Positions 4,955 through 32,000 of a stretch of 32,000 bases of DNA are shown piece by piece. A program made the translations under genes and the position numbers. The stretch's first letter is position 1. Every line of letters begins with the position of its first letter. The stretch lies in the NCBI RefSeq assembly GCF_000253055.1, contig NC_016070.1, forward strand, positions 90,001-122,000, in the 5' to 3' direction. A model generated the notes under the pieces. It saw only the letters and a program-made list of their open reading frames with translations, was not told the origin of the DNA and did no database searches. The stretch comes from Thermoproteus tenax Kra 1 (GTDB lineage Archaea > Thermoproteota > Thermoprotei > Thermoproteales > Thermoproteaceae).

Positions 4955-5404
4955 GTGCCGACCTTTAAGGTAGTAGTCTCGGACCCGCTGAGTGGAAAAG
5001 CAGTTCAGTTCGAGGTAAAGGACCCGGCATCGCAGAGGTTCATCGGGCTTAAGATAGGCGATACTATAGACGCCTCGGTGCTCCCCGAGCTCAAGGCGCC
5101 CCCGGGGTCGAAGCTGAGGATAACAGGCGGCAGCGGCATCGAGGGGGCGCCCATGGTGCCCGGCGTGCCGGGGCAAGTTAAGAAATACGCTATACTTGCA
5201 ACGCCGCCTGGCTATAGGCCCAAGAAGTGGGGCGAGCGGCGCAAGAAGCTCGTTAGGGGCAACACCATATCTGACCAAATAGTGCAGATAAACACAGTAT
5301 TGGTCTACCCAGAGAACTATAGGGGGGAGCCCGTTGTGGCTCTAGGGCCAAAAGAGGTAGGAAAGTTGACGGGCCAAGCCCAACAGACGGAGCAACAGAG
5401 CTAG
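4955..5404 (+). CDS. rps6e: 30S ribosomal protein S6e
   Basis: 149 aa. The N-terminus (M)PTFKVVVSDPLSGKAVQFEV and the RITGGSGIEGAPM region are typical of S6e. GTG start 23 nt from an atttaaaaaataa TATA element. Confidence 0.9.
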   Translation: MPTFKVVVSDPLSGKAVQFEVKDPASQRFIGLKIGDTIDASVLPELKAPPGSKLRITGGSGIEGAPMVPGVPGQVKKYAILATPPGYRPKKWGERRKKLVRGNTISDQIVQINTVLVYPENYRGEPVVALGPKEVGKLTGQAQQTEQQS

Positions 5405-22370: not shown

Positions 22371-22380
22371 TTTTTATATA
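22371..22380 (+). promoter_or_regulatory. TATA-like box (tttttatata) of the lysX-like/lysY/lysZ operon
   Basis: Its centre is about 22 nt upstream of ATG 22398. Confidence 0.55.
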
Positions 22381-22397
22381 GGCTCGGTCGGGCCCCT

Positions 22398-22466
22398 ATG
22401 GAATTTGCGGGGAAAGCGGGGCCAGCGGGGCGAAGATATATATCATCTCCGAGAAGCCCGAGCTAG
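22398..22466 (+). promoter_or_regulatory. 22-codon leader ORF (MEFAGKAGPAGRRYISSPRSPS) with three tandem GCGGGG+codon units; candidate -1 frameshift sensor
   Basis: GCGGGGAAA, GCGGGGCCA and GCGGGGCGA at 22407-22433. The leader frame is +1 relative to the downstream enzyme frame, which is open from 22382 but has no ATG, GTG or TTG before 22478. Confidence 0.55.
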
Positions 22467-23083
22467 GGGAGAGGCTTTTGGCCAAGTTTATATCGGCCCG
22501 GGGTCTCTCAGCCGAGATAGTTGGCCTTGAGGGCGGCATCTCCTCGCCGGAGGGGCTCGCCGTAATTAGGACTAGGAACCAGTACTTGGGAGCGACCTAC
22601 GCCGCTGTATTTAGGCGGGCTGTTAACCAGGCCCACGCCATTTATAATGCCTTGAACAGACTCTACTGGTTGCCCAAGTTCGGCCCGCCCTTCATGGCGT
22701 TCGTCGAAGAGGACGCCGTAGAGAAAGTTGAGTTCGGCCCGCCCTGGCTCTTGGCTACTGCGTGGCGCCTCGGGCTTGACAGCGTAGTGACGAGCGTTGA
22801 GGGGGCCAAGAGCGTGGTGGAGCACCGCTCCTACATGAGGAATCCCCTGGCCAAGGCCAGCGTAGTGATGCCCAAGCCCAGGGAGGTCAAAAGGGTCTTC
22901 GCCGTGGCAGGCATGTCCGACGGAATAGTGGACGAACTCTTGAGGGCCACAGGCTTGAGATACGCCGAGGTGGCCCTGGGCGTGTACGAGGACGGCGAGC
23001 GCGTCATAGACGTCGACCCCATCCCCGAGCTCGACGAGGCCCGCGCAAGGCTCTTGGCAGAATTTCTGGCGTCGGAGACATGA
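22398..23083 (+). CDS. short, divergent RimK/LysX/ArgX-like protein (expression appears to need a -1 shift from ATG 22398)
   Basis: The enzyme frame begins ...AKIYIISEKPELGERLLAKFISARGLSAEIV, which resembles a pre-ATP-grasp N-terminus. The C-terminus ...GLRYAEVALGVYEDGERVIDVDPIPEL resembles the end of an ATP-grasp. It occupies the first slot of the lysY-lysZ operon. It is only about 215 aa and lacks an obvious central ATP-grasp domain. Confidence 0.45.
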
Positions 23084-24135
23084 AGGTCTGTATAATAGGC
23101 GCATCGGGGTTCACGGGGGGCGAGCTCCTGAGAATACTTCTCAGCCACAGCGGAGTGGAGGTCGTCTGTGCCACGTCTAGGAAGTTCAAGGGCGAGTACG
23201 TCTACAGAGTGCACCCAAATCTGAGGGGGTTCACAAACCTCAAGTTTGTGGAGCCGAGCATAGACGTAGCCCTTAAGGCCGACGCCGTGTTCTTGGCGCT
23301 TCCTCACGGCGAGTCTGTCAAGTGGGTCCCCCAGCTCTACGAACACGGCCTGTACGTCGTAGATCTCAGCGCAGACTTCAGACTGAAGGACCCTAACGCC
23401 TACGTAGAGTGGTACAGATGGCCTCAGCCCCATCCCTACCCCGATCTGCTTAAGAGGGCCGTCTACGGGTTGCCCGAGTTGCACAGAGAGGAGCTCCCCG
23501 GCGCTAAGTTGATCGCATCGCCGGGCTGCACAGCGACGGCGTCCATCATGGCTCTGGCGCCTCTCGCAAAGGAGGGCCTCATAGACTCCGGCCCCATCGT
23601 CGTCGACGTCAAGATGGGCTCCTCGGGCGCCGGAGCAGAGGGCTCAGTGTTGGACATGCACAGCCACAGGACGTACGTGATAAGGCCCTACGAGCCCGTG
23701 CACCACAGACATACGGCTGAGGTCGAGCAAGAGCTCACTAGGCTGGCCGGCAGAGAGGTAAAAGTTGCCTACACGCCGCACGCAGTGGATGTTGTCAGAG
23801 GCATTCTCTCGACGGGGCACGTCTTTACTGAGAAGGACGTGGAGGAGCCCTCCCTCTGGAAGGCCTATCGATCTCTATACGGAGACAGCAAGTTCGTGAG
23901 AATAGTGAAGGACAAGATAGGGCTTGCGCGCTACCCGAATATAAAGTACATCTTGGGCACTAATATAGTGGACGTCGGCTTCGAGATAGATAGAAGGATG
24001 AGGAGGATAGTGGCGTTCGCAGCCCTAGACAACCTCGTCAGAGGCGCCGGCGGACAGGCAGTGCAAGCCTTCAATATAGCTGTGGGCTTCCCTGAGGACG
24101 AAGGACTTAGATATATACCGCCCCACCCGATATGA
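23080..24135 (+). CDS. lysY: [LysW]-aminoadipyl/glutamyl-phosphate reductase (ArgC family)
   Basis: [18 protein letters not shown] Rossmann start and the catalytic SPGCTATA motif. ATGA overlap with the upstream gene. Confidence 0.9.
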
Positions 24136-24917
24136 TAATAGTAGTCAAGTTGGGCGGCTCTGTAGTCTGCAAGGACCCCTCAAAGGCCATAGCGGACTTA
24201 GCCAAATACGCCGATGTGGCAGTCGTAGTACATGGGGGCGGCTGTATGGTGAACGAGGTGATGAAGGCGATGGGGCTCCAACCCAAGTTTCTCACGCATC
24301 CCGGCGGAGTAGTCAGCAGATTTACCGACTATGAGACATTGAGGGCCTTCGTGATGACCATGATGTGGATAAACAAGAACATAGTGGCCTCTCTGGCATC
24401 GCTCAGAGTGCCCGCGCTAGGTCTCTCAGGCGCCGACAACATGGTGTTGAGGGCTAAGAGGAAGGAGAAAGTGATAATAGTCGACGAGAGGGGCAGACAG
24501 AGGGTCGTCGATGGAGGCTACAGCGGCAAGATCACTGAGATAGACGTCAAAGCGCTTCTGCCGCCGCCGCTCAAAGTGTTGGCGCCGATCGCCGTATCGG
24601 AGAAGGGCGAGCTCCTGAATATAGATGGAGATCAAGTGGCCTTTGAGATAGCCTCGAGGCTCATGAGCAAACTGGTGATATTGAGCGACGTTGACGGTTT
24701 GATCATAGGGGGAAAAGTCGTGGGCAGACTCACGCCCCAGGAGGCCCTCGAGCTGGCCAAGTCGGACGAGGTCAAGGGAGGCATGAAGAGGAAGTTGATC
24801 GCGGCAGCCGAGGCGGCCAAAAGCGGAGTAGAGACCATAATATACAACGGTCTCGTCGAGTCACCCATAGAGAAGGCCCTCGCCGGAGCGGGTACTCATA
24901 TTATACCTAGTTCCTAA
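24132..24917 (+). CDS. lysZ: [LysW]-aminoadipate/glutamate kinase (ArgB family)
   Basis: IVVKLGGSV and VVVHGGG amino-acid-kinase motifs. ATGA overlap with lysY. Confidence 0.9.
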
Positions 24918-25165: not shown

Positions 25166-25175
25166 ATTTTAATAC
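25166..25175 (+). promoter_or_regulatory. TATA-like box (attttaatac) of argG
   Basis: Its centre is about 23-24 nt upstream of ATG 25194. Confidence 0.55.
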
Positions 25176-25193
25176 GAGCTATTAAGCCCCTCC

Positions 25194-25232
25194 ATGCCCT
25201 CGGGGCGAGAAAGATCAGTAGAATCGCGTTAG
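25194..25232 (+). promoter_or_regulatory. 12-codon leader ORF (MPSGRERSVESR) with UCG GGG CGA; candidate -1 frameshift sensor for arginine
   Basis: ATG 25194 is +1 relative to the argG frame. The G-run 25202-25205 is followed by the Arg codon CGA. 3 of the 12 leader codons are Arg. Confidence 0.55.
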
Positions 25233-26404
25233 CGTATTCGGGCGGTTTGGACACCACTGTTGCGATAAAGTGGCTATCCGAGAAGTATAACGCTGAGGTC
25301 ATAACAGTGACTGTAGATGTGGGCCAGGAGGAGGACTTCCAAGAGGTCGAGTCTAGAGCGTATAAAGCGGGCGCGGCGAAACACTACACTATAGACGCCA
25401 AGAGGGAATTCGCCGAGGAATATATAGCTAGAGCGGTGCTGATGAACGCGATGTACGAGGGGAAATATCCCCTCGGGACAGCCCTCGCGAGGCCTCTGAT
25501 TGTGTCGAAGACCGTCGAGGTAGCAAGGCGCGAGGGGGCAGACGCAATAGCCCATGGGAGCACCAGTAAGGGCAACGACCAAGTGCGTTTCGATGTGACG
25601 GCCAAGGCGTTGGCCCCCGATCTAGAGATCTTGGCGCCAGCCAGAGTGTGGGGCATGGGGAGGGAGCAAGAGATCGACTACGCGAGGAGACACGGCATAC
25701 CTATACCGGAGGCCCACAAGAAGTACAGCATCGACGAAAACTTGTGGACGCGCTCCATTGAGGGAGGGCCTGTCGACGACCAGAGAGCTGAGCCGCCCGA
25801 GGACGCCTTTAAGTGGACTGTACAGCCCGAGAAGGCGCCTGACCAGCCGACATATGTCGAGATAGAGTTCTCCAACGGGCTCCCTAGGTCGATAAACGGA
25901 GAGCGCGTGGACATGCTCCAAGCAGTCAGAGCGTTGAACAACGTGGGAGGTCTGAACGGCGTTGGGCGCATTGACCACATTGAGAGCAGGCTCGTGGGAT
26001 TCAAGAGCCGCGAAGTATACGAGGCGCCGGCGGCGGTGATACTCTACGAGGCCCACCGCGATTTAGAGAAGTTGGTCCTCACGCCGAGGGAGCTACGGTT
26101 TAAACACACTGTGTTGGACCCCCTATGGGCAGATCTAGTGTATCAAGGCCTGTGGGTTGAACCGTTGAGGCAGTCGCTGGAGGCCGCCGCCAGAGAGATG
26201 GAAAGATGGGTGGACGGCTGGGTGAAAGTTAAGCTGTATAGAGGGTCTCTACAGGTGGTCGCCCGCGACTCTAAATACGGAACATACAGCAGAGATATAG
26301 CGGATTACTCCACGGGGTGGTATCCCTCAGACGAGGAAGCGCGCGGCTTCATAGAGATGTGGTCGCTCCACAGCCTCCTGGCATTGAAAAAACGTGGTCA
26401 ATAA
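25194..26404 (+). CDS. argG: argininosuccinate synthase (body in frame from 25202; appears to need a -1 shift from ATG 25194)
   Basis: RIALAYSGGLDTTVAIKWL PP-loop N-terminus, plus the GSTSKGNDQVRF and ENLWTRS(I)EGG motifs. The track start TTG 25247 would delete the AYSGG part of the ATP-binding motif. There is no in-frame ATG, GTG or TTG upstream of it. Confidence 0.9.
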
Positions 26405-29116: not shown

Positions 29117-30534
29117 CTAAGGGGCGGAGGGCGCTTGGAGGGAGCCCAGCTGTTTCAACACTATGTTGGTCAACGTGGATTTAACGCCTCTGACCGACCT
29201 TATATCCTCTATTATTCTGTTCAATTCCTCAGCGTTGGAGGCCACCACTCTTGCGACGATATCGAAATCCCCAGTGACCTCTCCCACGTTGACGACGCCG
29301 CTAATCGTGGACACTCTGCGGGCCACCGAGGTGGTGTATACGTTTTCGTCCACTTTTATCCAGATGAACGCCTCAATATGTTTGTTTACATACGCCTTAT
29401 ATCTCACGCCCGTGACCTTCTCCAAGATCTCCAAGAGGTCCTCGTCTCTAAGCCTCCTCGCGTTCGTGGATTTGAGCTCCTCCACGACTTTGGCCAGAGT
29501 CTCCTCGTCTACCTTCACGCCGAGTCTCTCAAGCCGGTGGGCCACGGCGCGCCTTCCGCTATATTTGTCTAGGGAGAAGTCCCTCGACCTCCCCACGACC
29601 TCGGGCGGAAACGGCTCGTAGGTCTCTGGATTCGCCAGTACACCTGCTTGGTGGACGCCGGCCTTGTGAGTGAACACATTGTCGCCAGTTATGGGGAAGG
29701 TGGGCATCTGGGCGATCCCGCTGGCCGCCTCCACCAGCGAGGCCAAGTAGGGGAGCTTCGCCATATCGATGAGCTTGACGCCCTTGTGGTAGTAGTAGGC
29801 CGCGACGAAGACTTGGAGAGGGGTGATACCTGCTCTCTCCCCGAGGCCGTTCACTGTCGTGTGAACTACGTCGGCTCCGCCCTCGGTCGCAGCCATTGAG
29901 TTGGCCACGGCCATCCCTAAGTCGTTGTGGGCGTGTATATCTAGTCCGACCCCAGGCACGGCCTCCTTCAGCTTCGAGAAGAGTTGGCGCGCTCTATCGG
30001 GAGTGAGTATCCCCACTGTGTCGGCAATGCTCACTCTGTCCGCGCCTGCGTCTCGCGCAGTTTTTACCACTTGTATAAGGTAGTCGAGGTCTGCCCTAGT
30101 GGCGTCTTCGGCTGTGAACCTCACCTTCACGCCGGCGCCTCTCGCGAACTCCACGTGTTCGGCGATTATGGCCAAAGCCTCCTCTCTGGTCTTCCTGTGT
30201 TTGTGCTTCAGATGTATATCGCTGACGCCGTAGAAGATGGCGACTCTGTCGGGCTCAAGCGACGTCGCGTTCTCTATATCTGATTTGACGGATCTGCTGT
30301 GGACGACTATCTCGCTCTTGATTTCGCCGTCTCGCTTCAGAGCTATTATCTTCGAGATAGCCGATCTGACGTCGGGCGCCACGTTTGGGTCGCCCACCTC
30401 TATTAAGTGGACGCCTACATCCGACAGAGACTTCGCTATCTTGATCCTCCATTCCTCAGAGAATATAACGCCCGGAGTCTGCTCGCCCTCTCTCAGCGTC
30501 GAGTCGAGAATTTTTATGCTTTCCCCGAACTCAT
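29117..30534 (-). CDS. homocitrate synthase (LeuA/HCS family) with C-terminal RAM domain; body in frame with GTG 30553, but the likely initiation is ATG 30534 plus a -1 shift
   Basis: LDSTLREGEQTPG and HAHNDLGMAVANS...NGLGERAGI form a DRE-TIM core. The last ~90 aa (EAFIWIKVDENV...GDFDIVARVVASNAEELNRIIEDIRSVRGV) form an Lrp/AsnC-type RAM domain instead of a LeuA dimerisation domain. GTG 30553 abuts the TATA box. Confidence 0.9.
30514..30534 (-). promoter_or_regulatory. 6-codon leader ORF (MSSGKA) with UCG GGG AAA; candidate -1 frameshift sensor for lysine
   Basis: On the minus strand: ATG 30534, TCG 30528-26, GGG 30525-23 (G-run 30526-30523), AAA 30522-20 and TAA 30516-14. The ATG is +1 relative to the HCS frame. 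Confidence 0.55.
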
Positions 30535-30553
30535 GGCGGCTGAACCGACCCAC

Positions 30554-30596: not shown

Positions 30597-31085
30597 CTAC
30601 TTCGAGCCCCTTATCTTCAGATATTCAGTCAAGCCGCCGGCCTTGAGGATCTCGAGCGCAAGCCCCGACAGCGGCTTGCCCTTTATCACCTCGCCGGTGG
30701 ACAAGTTCACCACCTCGCCTGTCTCAACACGGACGACGACCTCATCGCCGTCTCTGACCCTCCCCCTCGCCGGGGCCTGCAACACTGGCAGTCCCACGTT
30801 GATGGCGTTCCGGAAGAAGATTCTGGCGAACGACTCGGCCACTACGGCCAATACACCGGCCCCCTTCAGTGCCGTGGCCGCTTGCTCGCGGCTGCTCCCC
30901 ATCCCGAAGGCTCTGCCGGCCACTATCACGGCCCCCTTAGCCTTCTTCGGGAACTCGGGATCTAGAGGCTCCATGGCGTGTTGGCCCAGGACGGCCGGGT
31001 CAGTATATACTAGATATCTGGCAGGTATAATTACGTCGGTATCTATCTTGTCGCCGTAGACCAAGGCCCTCCCCCTTATTTCCAT
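30597..31085 (-). CDS. 3-isopropylmalate/homoaconitate dehydratase small subunit (LeuD/HacB family)
   Basis: 162 aa. [29 protein letters not shown] and [13 protein letters not shown] motifs. No large-subunit gene lies next to it in this window. Confidence 0.9.
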
Positions 31086-31157
31086 AGCCGCTGAGCCTAT
31101 ATAGCTTTTAAAAGTTCCGTCCTTCAGGGAGAAGGCCTATATATAGAGAGGCAAATC

Positions 31158-31167
31158 TTTAAATATA
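31158..31167 (+). promoter_or_regulatory. TATA-like box (tttaaatata) of ilvB
   Basis: Its centre is about 22-23 nt upstream of ATG 31185. Confidence 0.55.
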
Positions 31168-31184
31168 GGTTAAATAGTGCCCCT

Positions 31185-31247
31185 ATGGATTCGGGGGTTA
31201 CATCGGGGCTCGAGGGGATCGCCCCAATAGGGTGGTCGACAGAGTAA
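31185..31247 (+). promoter_or_regulatory. 20-codon leader ORF (MDSGVTSGLEGIAPIGWSTE) with three G-run sites followed by Val, Leu and Ile codons; candidate -1 frameshift sensor
   Basis: TCGGGGGTT at 31191-99, TCGGGGCTC at 31203-11 and GAGGGGATC at 31212-20. The leader frame is +1 relative to the ilvB frame, which is open from 31178. Confidence 0.5.
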
Positions 31248-32000
31248 TCGACACACTAAGGGAGCTGAAAGTAAGACATATCCTGGGGATCACAGGCGGT
31301 TCAATAATGGCGTTGTTCGACGCAGCGTATTTCGTAGACGACATAGACGTAATAATGTTCAGACACGAGCAGGGCGCTGCACATGCAGCCGAGGGCTACG
31401 CCAGAGTTGCCAAGAGGCCCGCCGTGGTTGCTGCAACCAGCGGCCCCGGCGCCACCAACTTGGTGACTGGGCTGACGGACGCCTACATGGACTCAGTCCC
31501 CGTAGTGGCCATAACTGGGCAAGTGGCCACGTGGGTCTTCGGAAGAGACGGATTCCAAGAGACGGACATACTGGGCGTGGCCACGCCTATAACTAAATGG
31601 GTCTATCAAGTGAGGAGGCCGGAGGAGGCATCGCCAGCAGTCAGGATCGCCTACGAGATATCGGCATTGGGGAGACCGGGCCCGACTTTAGTGGATCTGC
31701 CCAGAGATATACAGATACAGACTCCGCGAGGGGAGGCCGCTATTCCGATAAATGTGACCAAGTTTATACCTCCAAGGCCTCGCCACGAGGATATAGCGAG
31801 GGCGGCGAAGATAATAATTGAGGCCCAGAGACCCGTAGTCCTCGCGGGCGGCGGAGTCCTCTGGTCGGGCGCCACGAGAGAGGTGATAGAGCTCGCCGAG
31901 AGGATAGGAGCGCCTATAGTTTCAACTCTTCCTGGGAAGGCCGCAATACCTCACAACCACCCGTTGTATCTAGGGCCCGCCGGAATGCACGGAAGGGCCG
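31185..32000 (+). CDS. ilvB: acetolactate synthase large subunit (ThDP enzyme), 5' partial, runs off the window
   Basis: The frame containing GTG 31232 reads VVDRVIDTLRELKVRHILGITGGSIMALFDA...HEQGAAHAAEGYARV...SGPGATNLVTGL...DSVPVVAITGQV. There is no stop before 32000, so it is absent from the ORF track. The start is either GTG 31232 or ATG 31185 plus a -1 shift. Confidence 0.85.

Follow-up and report, generated by a model that had tools for sequence, protein, structure and literature searches.

The 32,000-nt stretch of the Thermoproteus tenax Kra 1 genome analyzed here (the window; NC_016070.1, positions 90,001 to 122,000) raises the question of how translation reaches ilvB, the gene for the large subunit of acetolactate (acetohydroxyacid) synthase (AHAS), when the first ATG of its transcription unit lies in another frame. 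The unit has a TATA box, TTTAAATA, at 31158..31165 (+), the first T of which is 27 nt 5' of ATG 31185. This ATG, where a leaderless mRNA is predicted to begin, is one base ahead of the ilvB frame and opens a mini-open reading frame (ORF), MDSGVTSGLEGIAPIGWSTE (31185..31247, +), which we refer to as the leader. Its codons are ATG GAT TCG GGG GTT ACA TCG GGG CTC GAG GGG ATC GCC CCA ATA GGG TGG TCG ACA GAG TAA, that is, 20 codons before the stop. Three of the GGG codons are preceded by a G and are followed by a codon for a branched-chain amino acid: G GGG GTT at 31193..31199 (+), with Gly GGG in the ribosomal P site and Val in the A site; G GGG CTC at 31205..31211 (+), with Leu in the A site; and G GGG ATC at 31214..31220 (+), with Ile in the A site. 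The ilvB frame, identified by an open-frame check and by its full-length AHAS relatives, is the -1 frame of the leader ORF; it is closed by TAG at 31175-77, opens at 31178 and runs off the window at 32000 (+).

A sequence-only reading of this region had proposed that ribosomes slip by -1 from the leader into ilvB at three G-runs (31193-97, 31205-08 and 31214-17), and every coordinate that it gave for the runs, for the ORF and for an in-frame GTG at 31232 proved correct. The ilvB frame is indeed open across all three sites, with the TAG just 5' of it. The distance between ATG and tttaaatata, put at about 22 nt in that reading, was sharpened to a gap of 17 nt, or 27 nt when counted from the first T of the octamer. 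Three in-frame sites of the form G GGG [G/C/A]TN within 10 codons occurred once in the window, both strands considered, as compared with an expected 0.003 occurrences per simulation (300 simulations with a first-order Markov model). The observation itself is confirmed and is far from chance.

To what extent the arrangement is conserved was assessed in 14 distinct ilvB loci, comprising the window, three Thermoproteus-like loci and ten Pyrobaculum loci (including P. islandicum, P. aerophilum and P. arsenaticum). Protein relatives were searched for with a full-length query, as the 256-aa fragment encoded in the window alone gave only partial proteins. A scan of genome contigs, which was dominated by generic AHAS motifs, provided four relevant loci and the closest ilvB relative, from a Thermoproteus metagenome-assembled genome (MAG; 87% amino-acid identity); among the matches listed for a metagenome scan with the pattern TCGGGGGTN{1,4}TCGGGGCT, most were random GC-rich sequences, and only L101, L135 and L167 were real. 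Two JGI contigs, L081 and L082 (1-180), were set aside as chimeric-looking; in them, the ilvB 5' region is preceded by pieces of ilvC or of the sequence for the AHAS C-terminus.

Conservation in orthologous leaders had been named in the sequence-only reading as a check on its proposal, and the pattern was present in all 14 distinct Thermoproteaceae loci. The leader ATG was one base ahead of the ilvB frame in every one, which bears out the +1 relation of the leader to ilvB described earlier, and the ATG itself was conserved while the overlapping residues of the ilvB frame varied (N, D, H or Y). Both TCG GGG GTN at site 1 and TCG GGG CTY at site 2 were invariant (14/14 loci). Site 1 directly followed the ATG, with one extra codon between them in three of the four Thermoproteus-like loci (window, L001 and L209); sites 1 and 2 were spaced 9 or 12 nt apart (zero or one codon between), and all differences in length between sites were whole codons. 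The third site, NNG GGG ATY, was found in 8 of the 14 loci; the codon before its GGG varied (GAG, ATG, ACG, CGG or CAG) and always ended in G. L135 had a version with three Gs, and the site was absent in L002, L003, L210, L211 and L212. The earlier claim that the A-site codons are those of the three branched-chain amino acids thus held for Val and Leu at all loci, but for Ile at only eight. All 36 slip-competent G GGG sites counted in the 14 leaders had the form NNG GGG, as the proposal of a -1 slip at each requires, and all were followed by Val (14), Leu (14) or Ile (8); leader GGG codons without a preceding G were followed by Trp or Ser.

Outgroups did not have this arrangement: L213, which is Vulcanisaeta-like only by a guess from ArgG relatives, and L004 both start in frame where a start would be expected, and a Sulfolobales MAG (L214) has an in-frame TTG. 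A separate observation concerns L214 at approximately positions 990-1030, where ilvB is called from this TTG and a short ORF in the +1 frame, MELWVVHSEIR (ATG GAA CTT TGG GTG GTG CAT TCG GAA ATC AGG TGA), contains Leu, Val-Val and Ile codons and no G GGG. This single sequence may represent a different leader-peptide device.

The ilvB frame has no conserved start codon of its own. From the leader ATG to the conserved GI[TP]GG core of the enzyme, no ATG, GTG or TTG was present in the ilvB frame at 10 of the 14 loci, and an in-frame stop lies between the TATA box and the ATG in the window, L001 and L002. The gene is not a pseudogene, because it encodes a well-conserved AHAS and is followed by ilvN and then ilvC; the IlvB proteins of the relatives are full-length, with TPP_enzyme_N, M and C domains. 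These organisms include autotrophs that must make branched-chain amino acids (PMC3189178).

A simpler model is a plain overlapping upstream ORF, in which IlvB is initiated at a codon of its own (GTG 31232 in the window; ATA, CTG or ATC elsewhere), perhaps by termination-reinitiation, and the leader tunes access to that codon or stalls ribosomes. Initiation at GTG 31232 (31232..31234, +) had been raised in the sequence-only reading as well. Similar GTGs occur in L003, L101 and L002, and the NCBI records of IlvB give non-canonical starts for others, namely ATA in P. islandicum (L084 1501), CTG in P. aerophilum (L085 1501), ATA in P. arsenaticum (L088 1501) and ATC in a Pyrobaculum MAG (L083 3001). 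However, only 4 of the 14 loci have any GTG near the equivalent of 31232, and the homologous codon is GTC or GTT in most relatives. Since 10 of the 14 loci have no canonical in-frame start before the core, GTG 31232 is not a conserved start, and it may be a secondary start in this genome only. The non-canonical starts differ in codon and position between species: the ATA of P. islandicum is 7 nt before the leader ATG, and thus probably before the start of the transcript, and the CTG of P. aerophilum and the ATA of P. arsenaticum fall inside helix 1. In addition, stalling at hungry codons would lower reinitiation during starvation, which is the wrong sign for control of a biosynthetic gene. In L209, L210, L211 and L212, a TTG or GTG stands in frame at -7 or -10, upstream of the leader; these codons were rejected as starts because they lack conservation and follow the first T of the TATA box by only 18-22 nt. 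We consider independent initiation of IlvB quite unlikely, and judging from the loci compared, recoding is very probably needed to reach ilvB.

The lack of a canonical start is reflected in the databases, where versions of IlvB span 548 to 602 residues and gene callers disagree on the N-terminus. From our comparison, this disagreement is a systematic annotation problem caused by the leader. The residues encoded by the enzyme frame over the G-runs, G-G-x-[FI]-G-A, resemble the in-frame N-termini MGGAFGNQ and MGDALGNQ of Sulfolobales IlvB proteins (P0226, P0234 and P0238), and the N-terminal extension of IlvB may be older than the slip sites.

Spacing from the TATA box places the leader ATG, and not GTG 31232, at the position of an ordinary start codon. 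The start codons of six ordinary genes in the window, at 4955, 14119, 31085 (-), 28284 (-), 22305 (-) and 9898 (-), each lie 27 nt from the first base of a TATA-like box. ATG 31185 lies at that same 27 nt, whereas GTG 31232 is 74 nt from the box. The distance from the box to the ATG was 27-30 nt in the ilvB relatives (28-30 nt in Pyrobaculum), and in P. aerophilum (L085), a neighbouring ordinary gene has a GTG start 29 nt from its own box (read by eye). The mRNAs of these organisms are mostly leaderless, as has been reported for P. aerophilum (cited in PMC2151090). A start codon approximately 25-30 nt after the TATA box, as in leaderless mRNAs, was found at all four leaders of the window (the other three are described below), where the TATA octamer begins exactly 27 nt before the ATG. 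We infer that ATG 31185 is located at the predicted transcription start of a leaderless mRNA.

The G-runs are also constrained at the nucleotide level in a manner that the protein does not account for. The ilvB-frame codons GGG GGT ... GGG GCT over the runs were identical in all 14 sequences, whereas the other invariant columns of the gene body (14 Gly and 8 Ala) all use two to four synonymous codons. Single-codon columns thus made up 4/4 over the G-runs versus 0/22 elsewhere (Fisher test, ~7e-5). The frozen bases are those that form the run of four or five Gs and the T that makes the other frame read GTN (Val) or CTN (Leu); this T is a third position in the ilvB frame and the middle position of the Val and Leu codons in the leader frame. 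In this genome, both GGT (7%) and GCT (14%) are minor codons. On the 3' side of the third site, changes fall on third positions of the ilvB frame (TCA/TCG/TCC, CGA/CGT/CGG and GTT/GTG/GTC) and alter the leader-frame residue (alignment read by eye), so the enzyme frame is under protein selection beyond that site. A plain overlapping upstream ORF leaves the frozen G-runs unexplained.

Is the arrangement restricted to ilvB? We scanned the window for a TATA-like hexamer 25-31 nt before an ATG that opens an ORF no longer than 45 codons, where the neighbouring -1 or +1 frame stays open for 120 codons or more; G-runs were not among the criteria. The scan returned exactly four loci, all of which precede amino-acid biosynthesis genes, contain NNG GGG and have the long ORF in the -1 frame. 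When the TATA requirement was dropped, the scan was uninformative, as many matches fell inside genes. No such leader was found at other genes of the window (aIF5B, S6e, CLC channel, UbiA, SurE, MFS, CstA, ArsA and others), nor at lysK, an isopropylmalate/homoisocitrate-type dehydrogenase gene and the gene for a small aconitase-type subunit, which are not the first genes of their units. A match at ATG 3280 on the minus strand of L210 was a false positive, with a conserved GTG start one base later.

The second leader, ATG AGT TCG GGG AAA GCA TAA (30514..30534, -; MSSGKA followed by the stop), lies behind the TATA box TTTATATA (30561-30554, -), which is 27 nt upstream of ATG 30534, and has a single slip site, G GGG AAA (Lys), at 30526-30520. 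Its -1 frame is a homocitrate synthase gene (29117..30535, -) whose product matched TIGR02146 LysS with 516 bits (cut-off, 413) and the Pfam families HMGL-like, HCS_D2 and AsnC_trans_reg; the last corresponds to a C-terminal RAM (Lrp/AsnC ligand-binding) domain. The sole upstream in-frame start, GTG 30553, adjoins the TATA box. The homocitrate synthase gene of L001 has a leader at the same place, ATG CGT TCG GGG AAA ACG TAA. In its sequence, the enzyme (29117-30535, -) looks like LeuA, and its RAM domain weakly resembles LysM. Homocitrate synthase may be under double lysine control, allosteric and by the leader.

The third leader, ATG CCC TCG GGG CGA GAA ... TAG (MPSGRERSVESR; 25194..25232, +), has its TATA box, TTTTAATA, at 25167-25174 (+), 27 nt upstream of ATG 25194, and a slip site G GGG CGA (Arg) at 25202-25208. 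Its -1 frame is argG, the gene for argininosuccinate synthase (25193..26404, +; Pfam Arginosuc_synth and Arginosuc_syn_C). No canonical start precedes the AYSGGLD motif of the enzyme; the first in-frame start is inside GGLD, and the leader itself ends inside AYSGGLD. The annotated N-termini of ArgG orthologues are heterogeneous (MALAYSGG, MGRIALAYSGG, MGASK[IV]VLAYSGG, MAYSGG and MDTTVAIKW). The end of this leader inside a conserved motif, and the end of the homocitrate synthase leader at a point with no conserved start codon, further argue against a plain overlapping upstream ORF.

The fourth leader, ATG GAA TTT GCG GGG AAA GCG GGG CCA GCG GGG CGA ... TAG (22398..22466, +), was also found in the window scan; it has the TATA box TTTTTATA (22371-22378, +), 27 nt upstream of ATG 22398, and slip sites at 22409-15 (Lys), 22418-24 (Pro) and 22427-33 (Arg) (+). 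The operon in its -1 frame (22397..24917, +) consists of an ORF of 228 aa (22397-23083, +), then lysY/argC (23080-24135, +), which overlaps the 228-aa ORF by ATGA, and then an ORF with the [LysW]-aminoadipate/[LysW]-glutamate kinase gene lysZ (open frame 24111-24917, +). The 228-aa ORF is of no assigned family and sits upstream of lysY, where lysX or argX would be expected. It had no match in NCBIfam or among PDB sequences and one chance-level match in Pfam, and a single-sequence AlphaFold model had a pLDDT of 35. Its first canonical in-frame start, TTG 22478, would remove the N-terminal strand. At all three further leaders, then, the conserved protein begins in the -1 frame right after the slip site, with no canonical in-frame start before its core. 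A -1 ribosomal frameshift between the leader ATG and the leader stop is the only reading of these sequences that works at every locus.

The codons placed in the A site correspond to the products of the pathways: the ilvB leader has Val, Leu and Ile, the homocitrate synthase leader Lys, the argG leader Arg, and the leader of the lysY/lysZ operon Lys, Pro and Arg. End-product codons, a feature of attenuator leaders, were thus present in all four leader ORFs, each codon once and not in runs. The set of Lys, Pro and Arg is coherent for the lysY/lysZ operon, because, according to the T. tenax genome paper, Lys is made by the aminoadipate pathway and one proposed route to Pro runs through ornithine cyclodeaminase (PMC3189178). 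The probability of finding each of the nine A-site codons in the window within the right product set by chance was ~3e-7 when calculated from amino-acid frequencies and ~2e-6 when calculated from the codons that follow in-frame G GGG in ordinary genes. Most of the sensor codons are rare in this genome: CGA accounts for 2% of Arg codons, CCA for 9% of Pro, GTT for 11% of Val and AAA for 29% of Lys. Given recoding, this match between codon and pathway makes amino-acid sensing probable.

The same match bears on whether recoding could instead be constitutive. The shift might be an obligatory -1 at a fixed efficiency that keeps translation low, with the A-site codon irrelevant, or RNA polymerase might slip on the G-run; both versions share the evidence that recoding is needed. 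Reiterative transcription on G-runs near the start site is known in bacteria (pyrG), which is a precedent for the polymerase version. Yet a fixed shift would not be expected to have A-site codons that match the pathway at 9/9 sites in the window leaders and 36/36 sites in the ilvB leaders (chance, ~1e-6), or a middle T of the Val, Leu and Ile codons that is frozen despite being synonymous in the enzyme frame. Polymerase slippage in particular is unlikely, as the runs consist of only four or five Gs, lie 7 to 30 nt into the transcript and would be held in an RNA-DNA hybrid that includes other bases. We consider constitutive recoding an unlikely explanation.

The TCGGGG repeats could also be read as an operator for a DNA-binding protein, or as an RNA-binding site, just past the transcription start, with the frame relations as by-products. 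They extend from approximately +6 (Pyrobaculum) or +9 (window) to approximately +33 of the predicted transcript, where archaeal repressors often bind, and TCGGGG or GCGGGG recurs in four promoters of related pathways. But such a site would leave the missing start codon unsolved, and the spacing of the repeats changes by whole codons (9 or 12 nt) and not with helical phase. One regulator for the branched-chain amino acid, Lys and Arg genes would not explain the pathway-specific codon after each run, and a single copy is enough at homocitrate synthase and argG. This explanation appears highly improbable.

We propose that these enzymes are reached through an obligatory -1 slip, which the P-site tRNA would make soon after the start of a leaderless mRNA and which a scarce A-site aminoacyl-tRNA would favour, and assign this reading a probability of roughly 0.7. 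The leaderless mRNA would begin at, or within a base of, an AUG one base out of the enzyme frame. A ribosome starting at this AUG would, within 3 to 11 codons, come to at least one NNG GGG site, where peptidyl-tRNA-Gly on the P-site GGG could re-pair perfectly one base back, since G GGG reads GGG there too. If the A site were filled fast, the ribosome would stay in the leader frame and terminate after a peptide of 6 to 22 residues. If the A site were empty because the matching aminoacyl-tRNA was scarce, the P-site tRNA would slip by -1 and the enzyme would be made. Several sites in series would act as an OR gate. As ilvB overlaps at its end with ilvN, and the ORF before lysY likewise with lysY, the next genes would be translated by coupling. 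Starvation would thereby lead to more enzyme, the right sign for feedback. The interpretation offered by the sequence-only reading is supported by these comparisons and has been considerably extended.

The geometry of the sites constrains the type of slip. None has the X XXY YYZ form of a tandem-slippage heptamer: re-pairing at G GGG GUU, G GGG CUC and G GGG AUC is open to the P-site tRNA alone, and after the slip, the A-site codons of the -1 frame are GGU, GCU and GAU, respectively. A P-site codon with an identical triplet one base upstream was present at the 36 sites of the ilvB leaders and at all nine sites of the window leaders. Because the A-site tRNA cannot re-pair, the slip would be made by the P-site tRNA alone and would compete with filling of the A site. 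In L003, the shortest leader, the stop comes two codons after the Leu codon, and nowhere but at its two G GGG sites could a tRNA in the P site re-pair one base back. The rate of slipping would report tRNA charging, because the A-site codons name the products of the pathway, are mostly rare and stand at sites that act in series as an OR gate.

No RNA structure was found that could account for the leader by itself. A scan of 30900-31500 detected no terminator-like sites, and thus no attenuator hairpin; an Rfam search gave only a chance-level match (E 8.6); the consensus fold of 13 leaders was -2.7 kcal/mol with no covarying pair; and the four leaders of the window folded no better than shuffled sequences (z-scores of -1.3 to +1.2). 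A riboswitch or other conserved RNA structure was rejected on these grounds (no covariation, no stable fold and no Rfam family), and so was an ilvB attenuator of the bacterial type, which would need a terminator and antiterminator or a conserved structure. Nor does the structural gene have a start of its own downstream of the leader, as in attenuators; the leader overlaps ilvB in the +1 frame. A G-quadruplex was rejected, as most relatives have only two or three G-runs. A hairpin of the form GGGGC-N11-GCCCC (or GGGG-AUCG-CCCC) is possible at 31205-31225 (+), beginning 5 nt beyond slip site 1; it occurs only in three Thermoproteus-like sequences, which are too nearly identical to show whether the pairing is conserved.

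The absence of conserved helices also bears on RNA processing, in which a bulge-helix-bulge intron or a similar event would remove 3n+2 nt between the ATG and the core. The Thermoproteales are rich in unusual tRNA introns (PMC3189178), and the sequence of L081, ATGTCG|AAACGT, looks as though 29 nt of the leader had dropped out. However, no conserved helices and no covariation were found, no leader folded better than its shuffles, and L081 and L082 look like chimeric assemblies. We regard processing as an extremely improbable explanation.

Several observations weigh against slipping driven by amino-acid shortage. No conserved stimulatory hairpin or pseudoknot was found 5-9 nt downstream of the sites. 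Ordinary genes of the window do not avoid in-frame NNG GGG pairs, of which 65 were observed and 52 expected (a slight excess), so G GGG alone is not strongly shifty; we speculate that extra context must add to the slip, such as a place among codons 3-11 when the mRNA is leaderless, or an A-site codon that is rare. CTC, which serves as the sensor codon for Leu, is used more often than any other Leu codon. In the window, L003, L101 and L002, some initiation may occur at the in-frame GTG close to where the core begins. Six of the 14 loci lack the Ile site, and the loci are related, so the counts exceed the number of independent events. At the DNA level, the argG and lysY/lysZ-operon leaders come from the window alone. 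Finally, the anatomy of the leaders, their conservation, the lack of start codons and the nucleotide constraint are direct properties of the sequences and their comparison, whereas the slip at G GGG, its dependence on tRNA charging, the transcription start and the N-termini of the enzymes are predicted from sequence.

Short leader ORFs that read tRNA charging through ribosome speed are familiar from bacterial attenuation (E. coli ivbL/ilvBN, ilvGMEDA, trp and his), in which end-product codons serve as the sensor. Attenuation can be multivalent, with Val and Leu for ilvBN and all three branched-chain amino acids for ilvGMEDA. The leaders described here differ in that they have no terminator or antiterminator hairpins and one codon per amino acid instead of runs, the gene overlaps the leader without a start codon or ribosome-binding site, and the output would be a change of frame and not transcript elongation. 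An obligatory early frameshift that reports a product (RF2) or polyamines is known from prfB and antizyme, respectively, where a slow A site drives a P-site slip; those shifts are +1, occur at a stop codon and have a Shine-Dalgarno or pseudoknot stimulator, whereas the shift proposed here is -1, occurs at sense codons and would serve several amino acids and many operons of one genome.

The closest mechanistic likeness is the hungry-codon -1 frameshift of E. coli (Gallant and Lindsley 1992; Atkins et al. 2016, PMC5009743), in which P-site X XXY re-pairs when the A-site aminoacyl-tRNA is limiting and which needs no downstream structure. That shift has been described solely as a translational error or from engineered reporters in cells under imposed starvation, whereas here it would be the conserved, normal route to four enzymes, at codons 3-11; for trans-frame proteins made by hungry-codon shifts, the 2016 review of recoding stated that "no examples are known" (PMC5009743). 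Among archaea, the only established -1 frameshift is that of fucA1 in Sulfolobus solfataricus, which is likewise needed for a crenarchaeal enzyme (PMC1616953; PMC8037382). Unlike the mid-gene A AAA AAT tandem-slippage heptamer of fucA1, the sites described here are at the 5' end and are tied to amino-acid codons. Pyrobaculum, Thermoproteus and acetolactate synthase are all absent from the 2021 review of archaeal recoding, these genes are not listed in the GeneTack survey, and frameshifts are not mentioned in the T. tenax genome paper (PMC3189178). We found no published description of such a device in a literature search that mostly covered sources outside subscription journals, so an earlier account may exist.

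For the family as a whole, the comparison makes it moderately likely that the Thermoproteaceae control a set of amino-acid operons by one translational device, in which uncharged tRNA promotes a -1 frameshift into enzyme genes that have no start codon. Little is known about how archaea sense amino-acid supply at single operons, and to our knowledge, neither leader-peptide attenuation nor a T-box system has been established in archaea. If the proposal is correct, these leaders would be an archaeal counterpart of attenuation and T-box control, the second kind of archaeal programmed frameshift and the first natural use of hungry-codon frameshifting for gene control, an example of which has been sought in the recoding field. 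A frameshift leader would account for the truncated or non-canonical annotated starts of these enzymes, and ilvB, the homocitrate synthase gene, argG, the lysY/lysZ operon and probably others would be mis-annotated in every genome of the family. The rule of a TATA box, ~27 nt, ATG, NNG GGG, a sensor codon and a long -1 ORF can be searched for genome-wide, and the codon after the run would predict the controlling amino acid. The leaders would then constitute a compact, protein-free sensor of tRNA charging on mRNAs that have no 5' untranslated region.

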